Shown one piece after another: positions 1 to 56,477 of a DNA stretch of 64,000 bases (position 1 is the first letter of the stretch; the number at the start of each line of letters is the position of its first letter). The DNA comes from Mobula hypostoma (lineage: Eukaryota), in assembly GCF_963921235.1 (NCBI RefSeq), contig NC_086097.1:27654001-27718000 (forward strand), given 5' to 3'. The position numbers were made by a program, and so were the translations under genes. The notes below the pieces were generated by a model. It did not search any database and was not told where the DNA came from. It saw nothing but the letters and a program-made list of their open reading frames with translations.

Positions 1-1005
1 TGAGGCTGCTTAGCAGAAAACAGAGATTGGGAATAAAAGGGATCCTATTCTGGCTGGCTGCCGGTTACCAGTGGAGTTTCACAGGGGTCGGTGTTAGGAC
101 CGCTGCTTTTTATGATGTACATCAATGATTTGGACTATGGGATTAACGGATTTGTGGTTAAATTTGCCGATGATACAAAGATAGGTGGAGGAGCGGGTAC
201 TGCTGAGGAAACAGAGAGGCTGCAGAGAGACTTTGATAGTTCAGGGCAGTGGGCAAAGAAGTGACAAATGAAATACAATGTGGGAAAGTGTATGGTCATA
301 CACTTTGGTGGAAGAAATAAACAGGGAGACTATTATTTAGATGGGGAGAGAATTCAAAATGCAGAGATGCAAAGGGACTTGGGAGTCCTTGTGCAGGATG
401 CCCTAAAGGTTAACCTCCAGGCTCTATAAGGCACTTGTGAGACCGTACTTGGAGTATTGTGTGCAGTTTTGGGCTCCTTATTTTAGAAAGGATATACTGA
501 CATTGGAGAAGATTCATGAAAATCATTCCAGCAATGAAAGGGTTACCGGATGAGGAACATCTGGTAGCTCTTGGGCTGTATTCCCTGGAGTTCAGGAGAA
601 TGGGGGGGGGGGAAGAGGATCTCATAGAAACATTCTGAATGTTAAAAGGCCTGAACAGATTAGATATGGCAAAGTTATTTCCCATGGTAGGGGAGTCTAG
701 GACAACAGGGCACGACTTCAGGATTGAAGGGCTTCCATTTAGAACTGAGATGCGGAGAAATTACATTAGTCAGAGGGTGGTAAATCTGTGGAATTTATTG
801 CCACAAGCAGCAGTGGAAGCCAAGTCATTGGGTTTATTTAAGGCAGAGATAGATAGGTTCTTGATTGGCCAGGGCATCAAAGGGTATGGGGAGAAGGCAG
901 GGGAGTGGGGATGACTGGGAGAATTGGATCAGCCCATGATTGAATGGTGGAGCAGACTCGATACGCCGAATGGCCTACTTCTGCTCCTTATCTTATGGTC
1001 TTATG
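1..1005 (+). mobile_element. CR1 LINE 3' fragment (RT C-terminus + 3'UTR), degenerate
   Basis: FADDTK RT motif, CR1 C-terminal ORF 639-914, (ttatggtc)n tail; same family as 17900-19520 and 40190-42960. Confidence 0.9.
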
Positions 1006-1078
1006 GACACCCACCATCCACGTTCTGCTCTCTTTTTGCTATTACTATCAGGCAGGAGGTATAGGAGTCTCAGGACCC

Positions 1079-1466
1079 TGTCCTGTGGGGAACATGGCTT
1101 ACTTCGATTGTTGAAAGTCGCTTTGTCGTGATTCATTAGTTTAGAAACTGCAGCTGGTTTTCCCCTTGGAGAGCTGCCTGGTGTCTTGTTTCAAATATCC
1201 CAGGTATAAAATAGCATGTGGAAGGGGCTTGCTCTTTCCTCTTTTGTTTAGGACAAGCCATGCAATAACTATTTGGAAGGTATGCTTTGCGCGTATTTTT
1301 AACTCAGTATGTTGGTTGAATATTCAACTTTACCGTTTCTGTAACTTGGGGAACTTGAATGTTTGGTCAAATTTTTACTGTTTGTAAATCAATGATTAAT
1401 ATGCTAATTCACAGACAGTGTCTTCTGTCTCACTTGCCAGACCTGCAAACCTGATTCAACATTACA
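1079..1466 (+). repeat. ERV 5' LTR
   Basis: TG...CA ends (tgtcctgtgggg...ttcaacattaca); aligns along its length with 6348-6712; TATA-like tataaaa at ~1206. Confidence 0.88.
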
Positions 1467-1469
1467 TCT

Positions 1470-1487
1470 TGGCATTGCGAGCAGGGT
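1470..1487 (+). promoter_or_regulatory. Primer binding site, tRNA-Ser-like
   Basis: tggcattgcgagcagggt, 3 nt after the LTR; 15/18 match to TGGCGCAGCGAGCAGGGT, the remembered reverse complement of the vertebrate tRNA-Ser(UGA) 3' end. Confidence 0.65.
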
Positions 1488-2049
1488 ATGGCTTTTTGAG
1501 GAGAAATGTATTTCTTTATATAACACTCTGGGAAAGATTTCACTGCTAACATAATGGTCTTTCACAGGTTTGGTGGGACCAGAGTGTGTATTCCCTAGAC
1601 TTACACAGATCAAGGAAACCGGGCTTTCATTTAAAACAGTGGACTCCCCACCCCCACCCCCGGCCGATATGAGAGATGCAGAATCCCAGGTTGGACAGAT
1701 AGTAGTGTGGGCTTTGGAAGTCTTGCCAACCTACTGATGGGTTATGGAATGTCTGTAACAAACAAGGGAAAATCTGCAGATGCTGGAAATGTGAGCAACA
1801 CACACAAAATGCTGGAGTAACTCAGCAGACCAGGCAGCATCTAGGAAAAGAGTACAGTCTATGTCTTGGGCCAAAACCCTTGAAGCCTGCTGAGTTCCTC
1901 CAACATTTTGTATGGAATTGGTCAGGCCAGTTAGACATGCCAAGGTTGAAATGAGACACCACATTGTTTCCATACTTAAATTGTTAGGTTTTCCCAGGAG
2001 AAAAGATAGCTGGCGGGATGCTTTCTGGCTGTCTGCAGCGATATAAAAT

Positions 2050-3260
2050 GATAGCGAGTCTTGAGTGAATAGGAAGATCTCAGTCAGCTCTATATTATCC
2101 AGACATAATCACTATTGATGGCTCAGAGAAGGGCTGCAAAGCTAGAAGGTAAGAATATAGGGATAGCTTGTCTGATAATGAAGCTACAGCACTTACACAC
2201 TGTGCACCAAGCTGGTTGGCAGCATGACCCTGATAAGATTCGAGCCATGATGAGACAGAGCAATAATCATACTATGGGGCTGGAGGATGCGGATGTCTGG
2301 CTGGATGATGAAAATGAGGAATAGAGTGTAGCGTGCAGCCCTCAGTTTAATCCTTGAAATGATCGCCCTCTCTGTTACATGTCTGAATCAGTACGGGCCA
2401 GGCCAGTGATCACTCATTCCCAAACCCATCATGGGGGATATCGACGCAGGGCTTCTTCCTCTCAGAACGGCAAGGAAGAGGAGGCTCGGAATGTGTGAGG
2501 GATGGTGTAATGGGCCTCTTCGAGACAACAGAGGTCAGAGAATTCTCCACTAAGGAATTAGCAAGTTTAGGGGATAGGTACAGACAAAAGGCTGGGGAGT
2601 TTGTGGACATATGATATTTGAGGATATGGGATGAGGGAGGCATTGGCGTGAGCCTATCTAATGGAGAGATGGGTGCCTTAGGAACTCTACTGTCCAGCTA
2701 GCAATCAATAACGTTCTGAGAACACTGCTTGTTTCCCCCAAGCATAATGCATCACTATGGGATCGGTTAACGACAGAAGTTAAACATAAATATCATTCTC
2801 TTACGGAATGGAATTTAAAACCCCATGTGTAATGAAGCACAGTAGAGGGGGCACTAAAGTTCTTCACTAGTGTGCTCTTATCACAGAATTATACTGCAAT
2901 AGTGGCATCCTGTCAGAGGATATTGAATTAACTTCTCTAATGATAGGACATGTGGTTACGGCATGGCTTTTCCAATAAAAGGAGTGGGTCTGATTTTAAT
3001 AGCAGCAGCTGTTGGGCACCCTATAAGTACAGAGATTCAATCACGAGAGTACATAGAAGAGCGTGCACCTAGTCAGGTACGGAAGTTGGATAAGCAGGTG
3101 GGGAGTGGGGGATCCCGCATATCCCCGTAAATAAATGTTTTTAGCATTGCTCAAAGCTGGGGTCCTGAGGAGCAGGTGTATGGGGTTCTCACACCCACCC
3201 TCTCTGCAATGTGGAGGAAGTACTGTCAGGAGAAGCAAGAGAGGGAGCCTGTTGAGGGCG
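2050..3260 (+). pseudogene. gag: ERV gag pseudogene (ERV-L/Fv1-family capsid-like)
   Basis: From 2522: ETTEVREFSTKELASLGDRYRQKAGEFVDI*YLRIWDEGGIGVSLSNGEMGALG (cf. ERV-L YTPKEL...YRQKSGE..WEWILRVWDNGG). At ~3135-3225: MFLALLKAGV/PEEQVYGVLTPTLSAMWRKY (cf. ERV-L LWHWLINHGVPRSEID..PT..LL.LY). Contains stops and frameshifts. Confidence 0.8.
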
Positions 3261-3330
3261 AAGGGCCATTCTTCAAGCTCTCTGCAGATAAGGGTTCCAT
3301 TTGTCCTCTGCCAGATTCCTCAAATTCCAA

Positions 3331-4615
3331 GCAACACACACAAAACGCTGGAGGAACTCAGCAGGTCAGGCAGCATCTACAGAAATGTTTCAGGCTGAGA
3401 CCTTTCATCAGGACTGGAGAAAAAAGTTATTAAATCAGAGTAAGAAGGTTGGGGGAGGGGAAGAAGAAATACAAGGTGGTAGGTGACAGGTGAAACCGGG
3501 CGAGGTGAAGTAAAGAGCTGGAAAGTCTATTTATGACAGGCATAAAGGGCTGGAGAAGGGAGTATCTGAAGGAGAGGACAGAAGGCCATGGAAGAAAGTG
3601 AAGGAGAGGAGCACTAGAGGAAGGTGATGGGCAGGTAAGGAGATAACGTGAGAGAGGGAAATGAGAATGGGGAATAGTGGAGGAGGGGGCATTACCGGAA
3701 GTTCAAGAAATTAATGTTCATGTCATCAGCTTGGAAGCTACCCAGGCGGAATAGAAGTTGCTCCTTCAAACTGACTGTGGCCTCATTGTGGCAGTAGCGG
3801 AGGCCATGGATGGACAAGTCGGAATGGGAATGGGAAATGGAATTAAAAAGGGTGGCCACTGGGAGATCCCGATTTTTCTGCCAGACGGAGCTTAGGTGCT
3901 TGGCAAAGTGGTCTCCCGATCTACATCAGCTCTCACCAATACACAGGAGGCCACACTGGGAGTACTGAATACAGTAGATGACCCCGACAGACTCACAGAT
4001 TAAGTGTCGCCTCACCTGGAAGGACTGTTTGGAGCTCTGAATAGTAATGAGGGAGGAAGTGTAGGGACAGGCGTAGCACATGATCTGCTTGCAAGAATAA
4101 GTGTCAGGAGGGAAATCAGTGAGGAGGGATAAATGGACAAGGGAGTTGCATAGGGAGCAAACTTTGTGGAAAGCAGAAAGTGGGGTGGAGGGAAAGATGT
4201 GTTTGGTGGTGAGATCCAGTTGGAGATAGTGGAAGTTAAGAAGAATTATGTGCCAGACTCGGAGGCTGATTGGGTGGCAGGTGAGGACAAGAGGAACCCT
4301 TTCCCTTGTGGGGTAGCAGGAGGATGGAATGAGGGCAGATGTGCGTGAAATGGAAAAGATGCGGTTGAGGGCAGTGGAGGAAGGGAAGACCCTTTCTTTG
4401 AAGAAGGAGGGCATCTTCTTAGTTCTGGAATGAAAAGCCTCATCCAGACAGCAGACGTGGCACAGATAGAGGAATTGAGAGAAGGAGATGGCCCAAGTAA
4501 CAGCATAGGAAGAGGTATAGTCCAGGTAGTTGTGAGAGTCGGTGGGTTTATAAGCTGTCTCCAGAGATATAGACAGAGATCGAGAAAGGGGAGGGAGGAG
4601 TCGGAAATGGTTATA
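3331..4615 (-). mobile_element. Penelope-like element fragment (RT C-terminus + GIY-YIG endonuclease + 3' region) nested in the ERV
   Basis: ORF 3926-4414 ends ...CESVGVIYCIQYSQCGLLCIGES (GIY-YIG); LPFLDL RT motif in ORF 4246-4647. Confidence 0.85.
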
Positions 4616-4842
4616 AAAATATCAGTAATGTAATCCTCACATTCCATTCAGGATTCCCTATTACCCGCACTGGAGACATTGTCTGACCTTCCCCAGCAGA
4701 GAGATATGGCGGGGAGGCAGGTGGTTAGCATATTTGCACCTCATTGCTGTAGGAAGGGGGTCATTCAACTTGCATCCCTCTTCCCTGCAAATAGAGTATG
4801 AATGACTTGAATGCAGAGGAATGTGAGGAGTGGCCACACACA

Positions 4843-4844
<2 letters not shown>

Positions 4845-4892
<48 letters not shown>
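4845..4892. repeat. (TG)n microsatellite
   Basis: About 22 TG units. Confidence 0.95.
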
Positions 4893-4893
<1 letters not shown>

Positions 4894-5599
4894 TTGTGTA
4901 TTTATGAGAGGATTTTGTCTTTAAGAAACTCTGAATGTGTTGGGCCCTGCACAGGTGCTTTTTCCTTCTCAGATGTTCTCTGATAAGTGTGTTATTTCTC
5001 TGTGAGAAATTAACTGTCTATTTTGAGCTTCTGCAGTTTCATACCAAGTTTTAAAGAGGAGGAGTACAGGCTGGGTTTTATGTTTTGTGTTGTAATCTGT
5101 TACTTTGTTTCATATATTTGTTTAGTCAGTTAATTTGTTTCTTGTTTTTTAAAATCTGTTTTACATTTATTGTGTCTTAATTTGTTACTTTGTTACTTAT
5201 TTCCCCATGCAATTGGTTTTAGGGATGAATCACATTTCATATTGGCCATATAAAATTTGAGTTGATGGGGTAGAAATTTTGGCAACTTTATTCCCTCGGA
5301 TATTTCAGAGGGACATAAGCATTTGGGGAGCAATTCCAGTGGGGTTATTATGTGTTTTCTAAAGACCCAGGAGCAAGTGCACTTATATCTCCCTGCATTA
5401 CAGAATGGCAAAGTGGTGGATGCTGACTTGTGGTGGGAGATCCTGTGATACATTCTTAGGGATGTGTTTGAATGTCCACATCGGACCAACGCGTCAGATT
5501 GCTGATTTGGTATGAGGACTTCTTACTATATTGCTGAAGGGATGCCACCGATATTGATCCTTTTGACAAGGGAAAAGACTGTTGGGGGAAATTATCTGG

Positions 5600-6300
5600 C
5601 TTTTTGGGTTTTGGCATTCCATTTTGGGGGAGCTCAAAGGGGGTAGTCTATTCAAGCCAACCTCAACCCAGAGTATGGTAACAGCCTTAAGGGACTTGAG
5701 CCTCAATAGCCACTGTGGAGCAAGTGCCTTAACAGCTGGTATTACCCTACATACCATTTGTTTAACTGGAAGGTACTGACTCTTAAAGTGATTTCCCCAC
5801 CTGACAGAGTGTTGGTGTAGGTGGTATGTTGATTGAAGGTGCAAGGTAGATGGCAAGTGTGAGCAGGAACAGTCTCCTGAGGTGGCTGTGCCTATGCCAA
5901 ATGGTGTTGTGAAGGTGGGCACTCTCTGGGTGCTGAATGGAACTTACTGGACATGCAGTTCCTAGACTTACCCATGGTTCCCACACAGTGGCCTGACTGT
6001 ATCAGGAACTGATTTCGACGGCCTTAGATTACCTGCTCACAAAGGAAGGTGGCACTTGTACTTTACTGGTTAAAAATGCTGCACCTACATTCCTGATGGG
6101 TAGCTGAACATCACTCACTTGGTTGATCACATCTGAGAGTCAGTGTATAAGATTAAGTGGGGGACCATCTCATTAGCTATTACACTCTGGGGTGGGGCTG
6201 GTGGACCACTGTAGCATACAGGGTGACTACTGGGTTTCCAGTATTGGCTATTGTATTCCTGTGTTTTATATGTAACTTAGGGAGTTCATGGGAGTCATAC
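5600..6300 (+). pseudogene. env: ERV env pseudogene, gamma-type TM
   Basis: SU motif LWVLNGTYWTCSS*TYPWFP (~5923-5983); ISD + CX6CC remnant TALDYLLTKEGGTCTLL-x-CCTYIPD (6018-6097, 1-nt deletion); hydrophobic anchor WWTTVAYRVTTGFPVLAIVFLCFIC (~6200-6273). Confidence 0.85.
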
Positions 6301-6347
6301 TCGTCTGAGGGTTAGATCATCACGTTCGCAACTTTCAAGAGGTGGAG

Positions 6348-6712
6348 GGTCCTGTGGGGGCCGTGGTTTATTCTGGTCATCAAAAGTTGTTTTGTCGTGA
6401 CTGGTTAGTTTAGAAACTGCAGCTCCTTTTCCCATTAGTTAGTTGCTTGGAGTCCAGTTTCAGATATTCCTAGTATGAAATAGCACATGAAAGGGACTTG
6501 CTCTCCCTTCCTTTGCTTAAGGCAAGCGATGTACATAACCATTGTGAAGGTATGCTTTGTGTGCGCTTTTAACTAAGTAGGTTTCTGTAACTTGGGGAAC
6601 ATGACTGTTTGGTCAAATTTTTACTATTTGTAAATAACTGATTAATATACTTATTGGCGGTCAGTGTTTTCTGTCTCGCGGGCCAGACCCACAAACCTGA
6701 TTCAACAATACA
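6348..6712 (+). repeat. ERV 3' LTR
   Basis: Homologous to 1079-1466, ends ttcaacaataca, preceded by polypurine tract aagaggtggag. Confidence 0.88.
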
Positions 6713-7060
6713 ATCCCACTCTACCATGTGCAGGAAAAGTTATTATCCTTCAAACACCAGCTTCCTGAACCAATATGGATAACTTCATTTATCTTAATGA
6801 ACAACCTACTAACTTCACAACCTATAGACACACTTTCAAGGAGTCTGCAACTTACATTTTCAGTATCATTTATTTATTTTACACAATTTGTCTTCTTTTG
6901 CAAATTGATTGTCATTCTTTGTTTATACATAGTCTTTTTTATAAATCTTATTGTATTTCTTTATTTTCCTATAAGTGCCTCCAAGAAAATGAATCATAAG
7001 TTGGTATATGGTGATATATATGTACTTTGATAATGAATTTATTTTGACTTCTGACTTTGA
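6713..7060 (+). mobile_element. Rex/Babar-like LINE 3' end (continuation of 1005-1078, split by the ERV)
   Basis: Shared 3' tail ...aagaaaatgaatc...tactttgataat...(ctttga)n seen in many copies in the window. Confidence 0.7.
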
Positions 7061-8119: not shown

Positions 8120-10495
8120 GTGGACTTCTGGTGAGGCACGAGGCAAGATGGCAGCACAGCACTGAGCATTGACATATAACTCTCCTTTTTCAAGTTCTTT
8201 AGGGCTCATAGACGGTCTTATATAAGGTTGAGTTGGAGAAAGATCTAACTAAAGACATGACCTCAAAAAAAGATCCAAATTCAACCAGGAAACAAGATAC
8301 CAGCAGATGACACCAAGCTAGCGATTCATCCGAGGAAATAGCTATGCTAATTAAGCAAACAATGGCAACGGAGATGGAATCGCTGCAAGAAAAGGTAGCC
8401 CACATGCTAAAGGAGTCGCTGGAAAAGTCTCTCAACCCCATACAGAAGCATATGGCAGAGAATGGCAACATTCTCTGGTCATTAAAGGAGCAAGCGGACA
8501 TTCATGCTAAAAAATTTAGCACAGTCTTCAACAGTCTTCAAGGGATTAAAAGTAACATTAGCAAATATGCAGATGACACAAAGCTGGGTGGCAGTGTGAA
8601 ATGTGAGGAGGATGTTATGAGAATGCAGGGTGACTTGGACAGGTTGGGTGAGTGGGCAGATGCATGGCAGATGCAAGTTAATGTGGATAAATGTGAGGTT
8701 ATCCACTTTGGTGGTAAGAACAGGAAGGCAGATTACTATCTGAATGGTGTCAAGTTAGGAAAAGGGGAAGTACAATGAGATCTAGGTGTCCTTGTTCATC
8801 AGTCACTGAAAGTAAGCATGCAGGTACAGCAGGCAGTGAAGAAAGCTAAAGGCATGCTGGCCTTCATAACAAGGGGAATTGAGTATAGGAGCAAAGAGGT
8901 CCTTCTGCAGTTGTACAGGGTTCTGGTGAGACCACACCTGGAGTATTGTGTACAGTTTTGGTCTCCAAATTTGAAGAAGGACATTCCAGCTATTGAGGTA
9001 GTGTAGCTTAGGTTCATGAGGTTAATTCCCGGGATGGCAGGACTGTCATATGTTGAAAGATTGGAGCGACTGGGCTTGTATATACTGGAATTTAGAAGGA
9101 TGAGAGGGGTTCTGATTGAAACATATAAGATTATTAAGGGATTGGACATGTTAGAGGCAGGAAACATGTTCCCGCTGATGGGTGAGTCCAGAACCAGAGG
9201 CCACAGTTTAAGAATATGGGGTAGACAATTTAGAACGGAGTTGAGGAAAAACTTTTTCACACAGAGGGTTGTGGTTCTGTGGGATGCTCTGCCTCAGAAG
9301 GCAGTGGAGGCCAATTCTCTGGATTCTTTCAAAAAAGAGTTAGATAGAGCTCTTAAAGATAGCGGAGTGATGGAATATGGGGAGAAGGCAGGAAAAGGGT
9401 ACTGATTGTGGATGATCAGCCATGATCACAGTGAATGGTGGTGCTGGCTTGAAGGGCTGAATGGGCTACTCCTGCACCTATTGTCTATTGTCTAAGATAG
9501 ACAACATTCAGGTTTGCTTACGCAAGAATGAGCAAGTTACTAACTCCTGTCTCGCGGAGGTGACTAAGATATGGAAGAAGCTAAACGACTTGGAGGACAG
9601 ATCCAGGAGAAACAATGTGCGGCTGGTCAATTTACCGAAAGGCGCTGAGGGCGACGATCCAAGAGGTTACCTCCAGGAGATGCTGCTTAATTGGATTCCA
9701 GCGCTCAAGAATTCCCACAGCACTCCACTGGAGATTGATAGAGCACATAGGATCTTTTCCAACAACACCTCAAGACCGCGGACCATGGTTTTTAGGCTTC
9801 TACGGTACACTGACCAGCAGGCTATCCTGGAGGGCGCGAGGAAAGCCAAACCTACTCTCCCTGACGGCACCCAGCTGCATTTCTTCGCTGACTACGGCCC
9901 CGGCACGACGCAGGAATGGCAGGGATACAAGGAGATCCGTGCTAAGCTTTGACAGAAGGAGATCGACTCATTCCTCATATACCCGGCGGTTTTGAGAGTG
10001 AATATCAAGGGCATGAAGATGTCATTTAACTCGGCAGAGGAAGCGAAAGAAGCTCTGAAAACATCGGTGCTGGGAGATATGGAAGAAGACCCTGGGCAAA
10101 GTCCACACGCCCCTCGGGAGGAGATGGAACTGCATTAAGAGCTCAGACCAGCCTGTATGCGCAATCTGACAGGCACGGGCAAGTTAACGTCCTCGGTGTG
10201 AAGTTTTCTGGTTATTCTTTTATTGGAAAGTTATTCATTCCACTTGTATTTAGTTAATTAAGGGGCCAATTTGACTCTGAGCATTGCAGGTCAGGGTTTT
10301 AAGGTTAACTTGTTAGTACAAGGATAACATGGTAAGGTGATATAAGTCCGCCTAGATTTATACTTTTTATCTTTTACTTTCTACGGTGATATTCAATATA
10401 CCCAAATGTCATACTTTATCAAGAATGAAGTTGAAAAACAGCAGTTTGTTCTGAATAACTTTAGTCGTACATGTTCATTTCGGGTTATGTCTCCA
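8120..10495 (+). mobile_element. L1-clade LINE 5' part (5'UTR + ORF1 + spacer), interrupted by a CR1
   Basis: 5' ggacttctgg...aagatggcag; ORF1 from ATG 8258 with coiled coil, LEDRSRRNNVRLVNLP, EIDRAHR and YPAVL motifs (Transposase_22-type), stop at ~10138; internal stops. Confidence 0.88.
8542..9493 (+). mobile_element. 5'-truncated CR1 LINE inserted into the L1 ORF1
   Basis: [20 protein letters not shown], (tattgtc)n tail; same family as 53108-54090. Confidence 0.92.
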
Positions 10496-12000: not shown

Positions 12001-12134
12001 CTTTTCGATTTCTTGTAAATAAAGCAGCGCTATGTCACCAGCTTTCTCATAACATGTAATTATTTCTTGTTCGGGATCAAGCTGAAGATCACTTTGTGAT
12101 GATTCTGATGATAGCAGTTTTTCCAGACACAGGC
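12001..12134 (-). CDS. TTC7B: Internal coding exon of tetratricopeptide repeat protein 7B (PI4KA scaffold), probably orthologous to human exon 4
   Basis: Minus strand: polypyrimidine tract + AG acceptor (tttttctcttctttcgatag), 134-bp open exon (2 nt + 44 codons) reading (G)LCLEKLLSSESSQSDLQLDPEQEIITCYEKAGDIALLYLQEIEK, then GT donor (gtaaaa). Matches the remembered human TTC7B segment GLCLEKL...EQDVITCYEKAGDIALLYLQEIER. Too short for the ORF track. No flanking exons found in the window. Confidence 0.93.
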
Positions 12135-27399: not shown

Positions 27400-27912
27400 T
27401 ACAGAAAAAGGTGGATACAGCCCAATCCATCATAGGAAAAGCTCTCCCCACCAATGAGCACGTTTGCATGGAGCGCCTTTACAAGAAAGGAGCATCCATC
27501 AACTAGGATCCCCACCATCCAGACCATGCTCTCTACTTGCTATTACCATTAGAAAGGAGGTACAAGAGCCTTAGGTCCCACACCACCAGATTCAGGAATA
27601 GTTATAACCCTACAACCACTGGGTTCCTGAACCTGGGTGGATAACTTCACTCACCACAACTTTGAACTCTGAACTGATTCCTACAGGCTTTCAAAGACTC
27701 CACAAACTTATGGTCTCAGTATTATTTATTTTTTATTTGTGCAATTTGTCTTCTTTTGCACATTGGTTGTTTGTCAGTCTTTATGTACAGTTTTTCTTAA
27801 ATTCTATTGTATTTCTTTATTTTCCTGTAATCGTCTGGAAGAAAATGAATCTCAAGGTAGTATACGGTAACATACAGGTATTTTGACAATAAATTTACTT
27901 TCACTTTGACTT
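27400..27912 (+). mobile_element. Rex/Babar-like LINE 3' fragment
   Basis: Shared ORF-end sequence and 3' tail. Confidence 0.75.
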
Positions 27913-46637: not shown

Positions 46638-49610
46638 TTAATAATCCCTTAGACCAGGCTCCAACTCAGCAAACTTCATAGTGGCCAAAAACACTGATGA
46701 ATTGCGACCAATGTAACCTCTCATTTGGTTTTGTCCCGGACCACAACAACAAGGGTCGTCCCATTCCGACTCAATTTTCCCTCGCAAGGGCTTAGTAGGA
46801 GGGGGACGGGTATTGACCGCAGAGTTATTGCAAAACTTCCTGCAGTACCCCACCATCTCCAAAAGCCTTCTGAGGGCCCTCCTGTCTGTCGGGGTTGGGA
46901 GGTCAGCGATAGCCTGCACTGTAGCTTGCATCACTGCCAGCTGCCCCTGTGTCACCACAATTCCCAGGTAAGTGACATTCGTGTGGCCGAATTCATTTTT
47001 TTCAAGGTTCACTATCAAGCTGGCTTCAGACAGCCGTGTTAAATTGCCAATACACACCTCTGTGTTCATCAGCCCTTTAGTCACTGAATTACTCAAAAAA
47101 TATGGGTGTTGTTTACTTGGCCGCCCTATTGTAACAGACATAACCCAACGTCCCAGTTCTTTGCATTTCCTCGGGACAATCAAACACATGGGTGCGAGTC
47201 GTTTAATTACTCCTTCGGGGATTAAGGGAGAGACCTTATCAGTAGACCTGGCCAAAACAATAGCCTTCTCCCATCTGACCGATCCCATCCTAATCTTTTC
47301 AAAATGGTTTTTTCCTCTTATCAGGGGGCCTCTAGCTTCATTGATTTCCACGCTAACACCGACTAGGTTTGTTAGCATATCAAAAGCCGGTGACCGTCTC
47401 AGTTCGCGTCGGTCATGATCAATAACATTCTTCCCCCTGGGCAGCCGGTAAATCTCTTTCATGATTCCACCAACTGTTTCCTCCAGCACCGCAAAATGTC
47501 CACCGGGGGGTACCTCGTAGGCCATGTTAAAAACCTCATCCCCATAACTCTTTTGCACCACCCCCCATTCCTCATCTGCGGGTACTGTACTTGATTTCCC
47601 TTTCTTCCTTAGCACTTCCTCATCCGCACAATAGCCTACTAGTTCCCTTGTCAAGGCTGTGTCAGAGAGAGCGGTCTCGGCAAAAACCATCAGCCCCTCG
47701 TCTCGCTCCTGCGTCTGCACAAATTCTTTCCCGGCTACTGCTACGTCCGTCCCAGCTCCCTCACTACCTCTTATCTCACTACACCCTGTCTCATACAAGG
47801 TTGGCAGAAATGTTTCAGCCAAATTCACCATCGCGGGCGGGGCCTCCATGCTGGCAGGCTGACCCGTCAATCTCACAACTGGGAACACGATTCCTCCGGC
47901 GATGTCATTACCGAGCAACACTTCCACGTCTTTCATCGGTAATTCGGACCTCACCCCGATCGTGACTAGTCCAGAGACCAGGTTGCTCTGTAAATGTATC
48001 TGGTGCAAAGGGACTGACTCTGTCCCTTCCCCAACACCTTTGACCTCTACCTCCCCAGTCTGGGTCTCTGAGCTAAACTCTAATACACTCTTCAGTATTA
48101 GTGACTGACACGCTCCCGTGTCTCTCCAGATCCGCACTGGAACTGGTTTTAACCTCTCCTTCACTGACACCAATCCGGCCGAGATAAACCTCTCGCGCCC
48201 TTCCTGGACTTTTTCAGACCTGTCCTTCCCTAGCGGTTCGCTTAACAGCTCAATACAGCCATTCCAAATTTCCGCTTTTCCTTTCCCCGTCTCCTTCCTT
48301 GGGGCAAAGCACCTGGACGCAAAGTGTCCGACTTTCCCACAATTATAACAGACGACCCCAGGAGACTTCCTACCAGACTGCTCCCGGTCTACCTTATCCT
48401 TTTCACTAGTCCCCGGCTTACTTTCTGACTTTTCCGGTGGACTCTCCCCGCCGTCCTGACTACCCTTCTGGTAGCCTTTACTCGGGGCAACCTTCATTTT
48501 ATGCGTCAACGCATACTCATCCGCTAACTTAGCAGTTGCGGCTAACGTGGCTGCCTCTTTCTCATCGAGGTAGGGTCTCATACCCTCAGGGACACAACCT
48601 TTAAACTGCTCAATCCGAACCAGTTGCAGCAGTCTGTCATAATCCCCCTCTACCCCTTTCGAGGCGCACCAACGCTCACAATATGTTTGCATCTCACGAG
48701 CAAACTCCAAATACGTGCGGTCCCACCGCTTCCTCGCATTCCGGAACCTCTGACGGTATGCCTCCGGGACCAACTCATAAATCCTGAGGATGGCCTCCTT
48801 CACCACCTCATACTTCTGGGCATCTTCCGGGGATAAAGCGGAGTAAGCTTGTTGGGCCTTCCCTTTCAGTACACTCTGAAGTAAGACAACCCACTTATCC
48901 CTCGGCCATTCCTGACTTATGGCCACTTTTTCGAAATGGAGAAAGTACCGATCCACATCGGTATCGTCAAATGGGGGAACCAGCCTAACCTCCTGGGTCG
49001 CCCGGAACCCTCCACCTTGGTTCGGCACGAGCCCCTGCTCGGCCCTTATCTTTAACTTCTCCAGCTCAAATTCCCTTTCCCTCTGTTTCTCCTCTCTCTC
49101 CAACTGTCTGTCCCTCTCTCTCTCTTCTCTCTCCAACTGTCTGTCCCTCTCTCTCTCTTCTCTCTCCAACTGTCTTTCTCTCTCTTGCCTTTCTACCTCT
49201 TTCTCTCTCTCCCGCCTTTCTAACTCTCTCTCTTTCTCCTGCCTTTCTAACTCTCTCTCTTTCTCCTGCCTTTCTAACTCTCTCTCTTTCTCCTGCCTTT
49301 CTAACTCTCTCTCTTTCTCCTGCCTTTCTAACTGCCGTACCCGGAACTCGTGCTCGAGTCTCAGTTTTTCAAGCTGTACCTGTACCGCGTCTCCAGCAGG
49401 TTTTTCAATAGACACCTCCCCCAGCTCACCTTGGGGAAACACACCTTTAGATACATAGTGCTCTACAATAGCTCTGTGTATCTCCTCTCTCCTCGTCGTC
49501 GACTTCACCTTAGCAAGATTCACCCGTTTTGCCACAGCTATCAATTCCGATTTCCTGGCATCCTCTAATGCCTCCAAGGTCGGCGCCTTTATAAATTCCT
49601 CAACCTCCAT
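46638..49610 (-). CDS. Gag (E/R-rich repeat, SCAN-like capsid, CCHC knuckle) - aspartic protease - in-frame integrase/RT remnants
   Basis: LVPPF...YFLHFE...W; EAYRQRFR...IEQFKGCVP; CYNCGKVGHFASRC; RDTGACQSL...LLGND; degenerate IN (VPPGGHF) precedes RT remnants (KQHPY; YLGIVV...LRRLLEMVGYCRKF); no YxDD or DDE. Confidence 0.9.
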   Translation of the reverse strand: MEVEEFIKAPTLEALEDARKSELIAVAKRVNLAKVKSTTRREEIHRAIVEHYVSKGVFPQGELGEVSIEKPAGDAVQVQLEKLRLEHEFRVRQLERQEKERELERQEKERELERQEKERELERQEKERELERREREKEVERQERERQLEREERERDRQLEREERERDRQLEREEKQREREFELEKLKIRAEQGLVPNQGGGFRATQEVRLVPPFDDTDVDRYFLHFEKVAISQEWPRDKWVVLLQSVLKGKAQQAYSALSPEDAQKYEVVKEAILRIYELVPEAYRQRFRNARKRWDRTYLEFAREMQTYCERWCASKGVEGDYDRLLQLVRIEQFKGCVPEGMRPYLDEKEAATLAATAKLADEYALTHKMKVAPSKGYQKGSQDGGESPPEKSESKPGTSEKDKVDREQSGRKSPGVVCYNCGKVGHFASRCFAPRKETGKGKAEIWNGCIELLSEPLGKDRSEKVQEGRERFISAGLVSVKERLKPVPVRIWRDTGACQSLILKSVLEFSSETQTGEVEVKGVGEGTESVPLHQIHLQSNLVSGLVTIGVRSELPMKDVEVLLGNDIAGGIVFPVVRLTGQPASMEAPPAMVNLAETFLPTLYETGCSEIRGSEGAGTDVAVAGKEFVQTQERDEGLMVFAETALSDTALTRELVGYCADEEVLRKKGKSSTVPADEEWGVVQKSYGDEVFNMAYEVPPGGHFAVLEETVGGIMKEIYRLPRGKNVIDHDRRELRRSPAFDMLTNLVGVSVEINEARGPLIRGKNHFEKIRMGSVRWEKAIVLARSTDKVSPLIPEGVIKRLAPMCLIVPRKCKELGRWVMSVTIGRPSKQHPYFLSNSVTKGLMNTEVCIGNLTRLSEASLIVNLEKNEFGHTNVTYLGIVVTQGQLAVMQATVQAIADLPTPTDRRALRRLLEMVGYCRKFCNNSAVNTRPPPTKPLRGKIESEWDDPCCCGPGQNQMRGYIGRNSSVFLATMKFAELEPGLRDY

Positions 49611-49709
49611 TTCTGCTGTTTGTCTTTTCTTTCTTTCGGGAATTTTAACCCAATCAATTTACTCCGTCCCAAATTTAGCGTTCAAAATCGCGGACGAGAA
49701 CCCCACTTA

Positions 49710-55355: not shown

Positions 55356-56477
55356 AACTGAAGGAAGAGTGAGTAAGGGATTTGAAAGTTGGAGGGGGAG
55401 GGGGAGATCCAAAATGATAGGAGAAGACAGGAGGGGGAGGGATAGAGCCAAGAGCTGGACAGGTGATAGGCAAAAGGGGATACGAGAGGATGATACATGG
55501 GACAGAAGGTCCGGGAAGAAAGACAAGGGGGGGGGGGGACCCAGAGGATGGGCAAGAGGTATATTCAGAGGGACAGAGGGAGAAAAAGGAGAGTGAGAGA
55601 AAGAATGTGTGCATAAAAATAAGTAACAGATGGGGTACGAGGGGGAGGTGGGGCCTTAGCGGAAGTTAGAGAAGTCGATGTTCATGCCATCAGGTTGGAG
55701 GCTACCCAGACGGAATATAAGGTGTTGTTCCTCCAACCTGAGTGTGGCTTCATCTTTACAGTAGAGGAGGCCGAGGATAGACATGTCAGAATGGGAATGG
55801 GATGTGGAATTAAAATGTGTGGCCACTGGGAGATCCTGCTTTCTCTGGCGGACAGAGCATAGATGTTCAGCAAAGCGGTCTCCCAGTCTGCGTCGGGTCT
55901 CGCCAATATATAGAAGGCCACATCGGGAGCACCGGACGCAGTATATCACCCCAGTCGACTCACAGGTGAAGTGTTGCCTCACCTGGAAGGACTGGGGCCC
56001 TGAATGGTGGTAAGGGAGGAAGTGTAAGGGCATGTGTAGCACTTGTTCCGCTTACACGAATAAGTGCCAGGAGGGAGATCAGTGGGGAGGGATGGGGGGG
56101 GGAACGAATGGACAAGGGAGTTGCGTAGGGAGCGATCCCTGCGGAATGCAGAGAGAGGGGGGGAGGGAATATAACTTCTGCTAAGGCCCCATCTCCCCCT
56201 CGTACCTCATCTGTTACTTATTTTTATGCACATATTCTTTCTCTCACCTTTTTCTCCCTCTGTCCCTCTGAATATACCTCTTGCCCATCCTCTGGGTCCC
56301 CCCCCCTTGTCTTTCTTCCCGGACCTCCTGTCCCATGTATCATCCTCTCGTATCCCCTTTTGCCTATCACCTGTCCAGCTCTTGGCTCTATCCCTCCCCC
56401 TCCTGTCTTCTCCTATCATTTTGGATCTCCCCCTCCCCCTCCAACTTTCAAATCCCTTACTCACTCTTCCTTCAGTT

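Follow-up and report, generated by a model that had tools for sequence, protein, structure and literature searches.

XtERV-S, an endogenous retrovirus (ERV) of frogs, combines a class III gag-pol with a gamma-type transmembrane subunit, a primer-binding site (PBS) for tRNA-Ser and 5-bp target-site duplications (TSDs) (Yedavalli et al. 2021, PMC8278194). Here, we describe an element that resembles an ERV-S/XtERV-S-type retrovirus in layout, located at positions 1079-6712 of a 64,000-nucleotide stretch of the genome of the ray Mobula hypostoma (NCBI RefSeq assembly GCF_963921235.1, contig NC_086097.1, positions 27,654,001 to 27,718,000 of the forward strand; hereafter the window). We propose that it is the defunct copy of a retrovirus whose Gag is of the ERV-L/ERV-S (class III) type, that pol is undetectable and a gamma-type env likely survives in part, and that it likely entered the germ line, likely that of a ray, over 100 million years (My) ago; we give this reading a probability of roughly 80%.

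Class III and env-bearing ERVs have been reported from cartilaginous fish. In the reverse transcriptase (RT) phylogeny published by Xu et al. (2018, PMC6001957), the whale-shark element Rh_ty_ERV3 and the killifish element No_fu_ERV1 come, by label order only, immediately ahead of HERVL, murine ERVL and HERVS at the top of clade Huo; Rh_ty_ERV3 is unnamed in the main text of that paper. In the 6 genomes of chondrichthyans surveyed by Blanco-Melo et al. (2024, PMC11089739), 2,843 RT loci belong to clade III, which makes up the majority there. Gamma-type env ERVs occur in 6 cartilaginous fish, and a lineage pairing a class III pol with a gamma env has been found as well (Chen et al. 2021, bioRxiv 10.1101/2021.11.23.469661), and SnRV-like and epsilon lineages are found in the elephant shark (Han 2015, PMC4422223). 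In a 2016 review (PMC4977317), HERVS/L-like elements are given for tetrapods only.

An earlier note on this DNA, made from its letters alone, had taken the layout to be described mainly from amniotes and the lineage to be possibly undescribed in cartilaginous fish. These reports do not support either view: frogs already show the layout in XtERV-S (PMC8278194), and Rh_ty_ERV3 (PMC6001957) and the clade III RT loci (PMC11089739) are chondrichthyan. The tetrapod range given in the 2016 review is a point on the note's side. Class III ERVs in chondrichthyans and this arrangement of gag, env and PBS (in frogs) are already known, and the locus is a further member. Our searches, which covered the literature, returned no paper describing this ray family, a second point in the note's favour.

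Proviral ends and integration site

The 5' long terminal repeat (LTR; 1079-1466, plus strand) is 388 nt long, has the ends TGT...ACA and carries a TATA-like hexamer at 1205. Its 3' counterpart (6348-6712, plus strand; 365 nt, with a 24-nt gap relative to the 5' LTR) also ends in ACA and has G as its first base. TGT...ACA are the ends stated for class III ERVs by Yedavalli et al. (PMC8278194). The two LTRs are identical at 289 of 364 aligned columns (79%), the differences comprising 49 transitions and 26 transversions, and their local alignment score of 395 compares with a maximum of 37 over 300 shuffles. A third LTR copy was not found within the 64-kb window.

Following a 3-nt spacer after the 5' LTR, a PBS of the tRNA-Ser (UGA/CGA) type occupies 1470-1487 (plus strand). 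It agrees with tRNA-Ser at 16 of 18 bases, that is, 13 of 15 at the tRNA 3' end plus the 3 that pair with CCA. The query joined a T-arm motif to the complement of the PBS and was searched in metagenome contigs, which supplied the reference tRNA-Ser genes in place of the host's own. ARAGORN called a tRNA at 50 of the 103 loci fetched; tRNA-Ser (UGA or CGA) was called at 36, and the calls at the remaining 14 were spread across other tRNAs. At the opposite end, a polypurine tract (PPT; 6337-6347, plus strand), 11 nt long with 10 purines, lies immediately upstream of the 3' LTR.

The provirus interrupts a fragment of a non-LTR retrotransposon (a long interspersed nuclear element, LINE), which we tentatively label Rex/Babar, no search having returned the clade. 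The left part of this fragment (1005-1073, plus strand) aligns to a window copy at 27506-27579 and the right part (6718-7057, plus strand) to copies at 27576-27912 and 59675-59317, the fragment picking up in register beyond the 3' LTR. A paralogous open reading frame (ORF) of this LINE in the window carries PF09004. The bases flanking the provirus are GACCC (left TSD, 1074-1078, plus strand) and ATCCC (right TSD, 6713-6717, plus strand), and the uninterrupted site is GTCCC in two paralogous LINE copies within the window. As each flank is a single change away from GTCCC, a 5-bp TSD is supported.

Gag, Env and the lack of detectable pol

A decayed ERV-L/S-type gag spans 1671-3250 (plus strand); stops, a nested insertion and several shifts of frame interrupt it. 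When the frame at 2471-3256 was read with X at its stops and compared by phmmer with 1.84 billion representative proteins, there were two matches. The better of them, at E 1.9e-6, comes from the electric ray Narcine bancroftii, where RefSeq names it "Friend virus susceptibility protein 1-like"; the second is unnamed. P0006, a 540-aa member of the Narcine cluster, maps colinearly onto the window from 1671 onward (tblastn), and five of its eight segments (1671-1736, 1897-2085, 2067-2438, 2534-2689 and 2978-3061) outscore every one of the 300 control windows, in one case by a small margin (48 against 47). Structural and feature evidence on Gag comes from this Narcine relative only and not from the window's own Gag. 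The predicted structure of P0006 residues 305-510, the capsid region, has a template-modelling (TM) score of 0.84 to an Fv1 cluster; the other nine structural rows reach at most 0.51, and eight of the nine are retrotransposon-Gag clusters. Sequence searches of the PDB gave no Gag relative, the window's major homology region (MHR) had no match in a word-index protein search, and the same search with P0006 returned Narcine proteins only.

The MHR itself (2579-2638, plus strand, with one stop inside) shows, in a visual comparison against Fig. S6 of PMC8278194, the class III column pattern. Over 19 columns it is identical to the bullfrog ERV at 11, to MuERV-L and HERV-L at 10 each, to XtERV-S at 9, to HERV-S at 8 and to two bird ERVs at 7 and 7. 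With the 16 class I/II rows it shares 3-5 columns, and the gamma-, beta-, lenti-, delta- and alpha-type pattern is absent. The closing W-D-x-G of the MHR is present in 7 of 7 class III rows and in 0 of 16 class I/II rows. An exact CCHC zinc knuckle pattern was not found in the six frames of the element, in which decay could mask one. Our patterns for the Gag MHR, the immunosuppressive domain (ISD) of Env, its CC pair and the membrane region were composed after the sequence had been seen; those for the MHR, ISD and CC each occur once across the six frames of the 64-kb window.

Comparison by eye with the Gag of Rh_ty_ERV3 gives three ordered pieces, with identities of 22/52 (2534-2689), 10/21 (2749-2811) and 10/13 (3135-3173). 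On this sequence evidence, the Gag probably belongs with the ERV-L/S branch, adjoining the whale-shark lineage already in print. The class III features found are an ERV-L/Fv1-type Gag with a class III MHR and no CCHC detected, a 5-bp TSD and the TGT...ACA ends, apart from the first base of the 3' LTR. ERV-S, ERV-L and ERV4 are not separable in this copy, because those groups split on pol and pol is undetectable here. A dUTPase, missing from HERV-S and located after integrase in ERV-L and XtERV-S, would belong to this undetectable part. The two diverged LTRs, the PBS with its Ser primer, the PPT, the insertion into a LINE fragment that resumes past the 3' LTR with an imperfect 5-bp TSD, and the ERV-L-type class III Gag had all been proposed in the earlier note and are borne out. 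Its placing of gag from about 2500 has to be corrected: gag begins near 1670, some 800 nt earlier, and is split by a 160-bp repeat.

Two observations concern the Narcine proteins in their own right. At least three closely similar Gag gene models (P0004, P0006 and P0007) lie on three different chromosome-scale contigs, and these models may represent a younger family in which complete copies with pol are perhaps still present. Another Narcine model, P0008 (398 aa), goes under the name "sperm acrosome-associated protein 9 isoform X1" and agrees with P0006 at 89% identity over 41%; in it, an ERV Gag may have been spliced to SPACA9, or the model may be an artefact of annotation.

Downstream, a likely remnant of the env surface subunit (SU; 5400-5995, plus strand) is recognised at motif level only, by a degenerate N-x-S-x-C at 5488 and an SU-end-like stretch at 5900-5990; the CXXC-type candidate at 5488 is weak, the same pattern occurring 4 times in the window. 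The stretch at 6000-6300 (plus strand) reads as a gamma-type transmembrane remnant, with the end of the ISD at 6021, CC at 6077 and a hydrophobic helix at 6223-6279 (mean hydropathy 2.2). ISD, cysteine motif and helix follow one another in order just before the PPT, and the stretch fits the alignment in Fig. S7 of PMC8278194 by eye. An Env with ISD and CX6CC had been claimed before; both motifs lie where they were said to lie. The cysteine motif is split by a frame switch, and the env stretch has no significant match in Pfam or the PDB. A furin site, a fusion peptide and a first heptad region were not seen in the env stretch, and env is therefore internally deleted. From the order and position of its motifs, the remnant likely derives from a gamma-type transmembrane subunit.

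Some 1.5 kb of the proviral span consists of two nested insertions plus a (TG)22 run, and the interior comes to about 3.4 kb once nested repeats are subtracted. At the 3' end of gag lies a Penelope-like fragment, a GIY-YIG end (3311-4625, minus strand; boundaries approximate and no clear TSD seen), which occupies the expected start of protease and pol. It has 66% amino acid identity to a window ORF at 55656-56051, which carries PF01541 (GIY-YIG). Beyond it lies an unassigned T-rich stretch between gag and env (4626-5400, plus strand; about 770 nt, with (TG)22 at 4845-4888). Comparison of its six frames with Pfam and of the three forward frames with the PDB turned up nothing resembling protease, RT, integrase or a host gene. 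Neither a YxDD nor a protease DTG motif is present in the element, and 15 further window pieces, together with P0006, had no relevant Pfam match at E up to 10. A captured host gene or a pol remnant in 4626-5400 was considered and found no support in these Pfam and PDB searches.

The second insertion, a short high-copy repeat within gag (1751-1910, no strand assigned; 160 bp), has inverted arms of 28 bp and is flanked by a perfect 8-bp duplication of its target (1743-1750 and 1911-1918). The repeat is extremely abundant in public runs of all four organisms considered below, and its core also occurs at the end of the Penelope fragments.

Elsewhere in the window, 46% of which is repeated within the window itself, the sole host exon identified is a TTC7B coding exon (12001-12134, minus strand; phmmer to PDB TTC7B, E 2.6e-14; AG/GT ends), the next exon lying outside. 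As this exon is on the minus strand, the provirus is antisense to TTC7B and likely sits in the intron following that exon. A 1006-codon open frame at 46638-49658 (minus strand) carries SCAN (PF02023, E 7e-12) and zinc knuckle (PF00098) domains, reads by eye as a SCAN-type Gypsy Gag-protease jumping to the end of RT, and has no RT or integrase match in Pfam; it is likely an internally deleted Gypsy element with a still open frame. ORF pieces at 9461-10135 (plus strand) resemble a LINE-1-type ORF1 by eye and have no Pfam match at E 0.01.

Copies, age and rival explanations

Public runs of two organisms contain 0.33-0.62 of the sampled words, and those of seven more organisms less than 0.1. Contigs from public runs of four organisms (A, B, C and E) were aligned with the element at 80% likeness, and 32 of more than 720,000 pieces were listed. 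At single sites, at least 119-123 contigs differ in the LTR (counts being capped at 128), 32-46 in gag and 43-56 in env across the four runs; the family is multi-copy in all four organisms. Among the pieces listed, those of organism B with 1-3 differences in 290-347 nt are likely the orthologue, and those with 5-9% difference, from A, C and E, may be either orthologous or closely paralogous; in B, C and E, the pieces listed never span a flank junction. Other copies carry the stretch 4632-4855, with no contig bridging gag to it among those listed. The nested repeats dominated this alignment, and the listed pieces included neither an empty-site joint nor a gag-env bridge. In pattern scans, contigs of viral origin gave 60 matches and metagenome contigs 327, none of which was confirmed as a relative.

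The Kimura two-parameter distance between the LTRs is 0.247 +/- 0.031, or 0.217 without CpG columns. This corresponds to 108-123 My at a rate of 1e-9, to 217-247 My at 0.5e-9, the rate used for a catshark (PMC10699275), and to 49-56 My at 2.2e-9, a mammalian rate. At 2.2e-10, the chondrichthyan rate of Han (2015, PMC4422223), the age would be an impossible 490-560 My. For the epaulette shark, a rate of 7e-10 per generation has been reported, slower still per year (PMC10587355). We consider an insertion age of 110-250 My, and thus above 100 My, likely.

Several observations weigh against our reading of the locus as a class III provirus of this age. This copy has no RT and hence no tree placement; none of 15 internal frames and pieces has a Pfam match at E up to 1; and three of the eight Gag segments score no better than controls. 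Language-model features of P0006 score 0.90 to Retrotrans_gag clusters against 0.88 to Fv1, and the MHR reference set is without epsilon, SnRV, ERV4 or Gypsy rows. The PDB matches of env are non-significant (E 0.8-2.7) and are to filovirus and reptarenavirus-type GP2 rather than to a retroviral transmembrane protein. The two TSD copies disagree at 2 of 5 bases, and the LTR age depends on the substitution rate assumed.

The element could instead be ERV-S-like in layout only and belong to another env-bearing lineage outside classes I and II, whether ERV4-like or from some branch of clade Huo that has yet to be classified. ERV3 and ERV4 both have an env, a 5-bp TSD and no zinc finger, and pol phylogeny alone separates them (Chong et al. 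2014, PMC4299795); in addition, an SnRV-related class III pol with a gamma-type env is reported in ERV-SA.a-Ppe (bioRxiv 10.1101/2021.11.23.469661). We nonetheless regard such an origin as unlikely, given that the MHR is close to the ERV-L/ERV-S rows, that ERV4 is reported from crocodilians and turtles only (PMC4299795), and that the Gag of Rh_ty_ERV3 matches while that of Rh_ty_ERV2, listed next to SnRV, is unlike the present element by eye and has a CCHC knuckle. A Gypsy/Ty3-type retrotransposon shell that acquired unrelated sequence would suit the feature-level score of 0.90 noted above. This is largely refuted by the Fv1 structural match, far above any other row, by the class III MHR, and by an ISD, a cysteine motif and a membrane helix that keep the order of an env ahead of the PPT, with no host-gene match for 4626-5400 in the Pfam and PDB searches described above.

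A different kind of alternative is a recombinant locus, in which two different proviruses, or a provirus and a solo LTR, were joined through deletion or recombination, so that pol was lost, gag and env possibly come from different viruses and the LTR age is overstated. The mismatched TSD, the 24-nt gap between the LTRs and the impossible age at the published 2.2e-10 rate would all fit, as would the deeper coverage of the env and LTR stretches than of gag in all four runs, coverage not being a copy number. Both flanks, however, continue one LINE fragment in register, each TSD copy being a single change from the paralogous site. Furthermore, the more distant copies among those listed differ by about 15-20% (the filter cut at 20%) and the LTR pair by 20.6%; as copy-to-copy distances are close to the LTR distance, the latter is unlikely to be a recombination artefact alone. 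We therefore see only a slim chance of recombination.

Returning to a single class III provirus, its history might have run as follows. A retrovirus of the Rh_ty_ERV3 or ERV-L/S branch would have primed reverse transcription with tRNA-Ser and integrated antisense to TTC7B through a 5-bp staggered cut, after which the copy would have decayed neutrally. Pol and part of env may have been lost by deletion in this copy, with the Penelope insertion at the expected pol start; alternatively, a complete helper may have copied, in trans, a parent element in which the deletion was already present. The provirus makes no protein, and there is no sign of a host function. A more far-reaching and doubtful conjecture is that the insertion is Mesozoic (at least 150 My old), common to several ray lineages, and derived from a non-autonomous class III family comparable to MaLR, which would have arisen separately in rays and spread with env but no pol. 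If true, this would supply a dated marine minimum age for the combination of class III gag, gamma env and Ser PBS, exceeding the mammalian ERV-L record of about 100 My.

Comparison with described elements

The serine primer of HERV-S is indicated by the family name, and MaLR-type elements are non-autonomous class III elements with LTRs, a PBS, a PPT and a Gag-derived interior lacking pol. In contrast to the MaLR type, the present element retains an env remnant, and its loss of pol is seen in this one copy. It shares with HERV-S/ERV-S a class III MHR (8 of 19 columns) and, likely, a gamma-type transmembrane subunit, although the HERV-S MHR is no closer to it than those of HERV-L and MuERV-L (10/19) or the bullfrog ERV (11/19).

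Within elasmobranchs, the best-matching Narcine protein, XP_069772250, and the cluster members XP_069792282 and XP_069797066 are colinear with the element over most of Gag, with 52-54% identity in a 52-residue MHR block. Their open frames of 253-540 aa and mutual likeness of about 90% point to a younger, distinct family, known from automatic annotations rather than as a described ERV. Rh_ty_ERV3 is alike in its elasmobranch host and Gag type; it is placed by RT, which the present copy lacks, and the comparison covers only the visible part of its gag.

ERV-L/S-type elements of sharks and rays are known from RT screens, and a description with LTR, PBS and env was not found in the literature examined; one locus here joins these features. 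With an LTR distance of 25% in a slow-evolving lineage, it is a candidate for a place among the older two-LTR proviruses. In layout it resembles XtERV-S and the African frog ERVs, sharing an ERV-L-type MHR, the lack of a zinc finger, a likely gamma-type transmembrane subunit with ISD and CX6CC, a Ser PBS, TGT...ACA ends and a 5-bp TSD, and the frog relatives of XtERV-S also include internally deleted copies (PMC8278194). XtERV-S differs in being intact and recent, with a pol that includes dUTPase, LTRs of 705 bp and a Ser(AGA/TGA) PBS, whereas the ray element has LTRs of 365-388 bp that are 21% diverged, and no pol.

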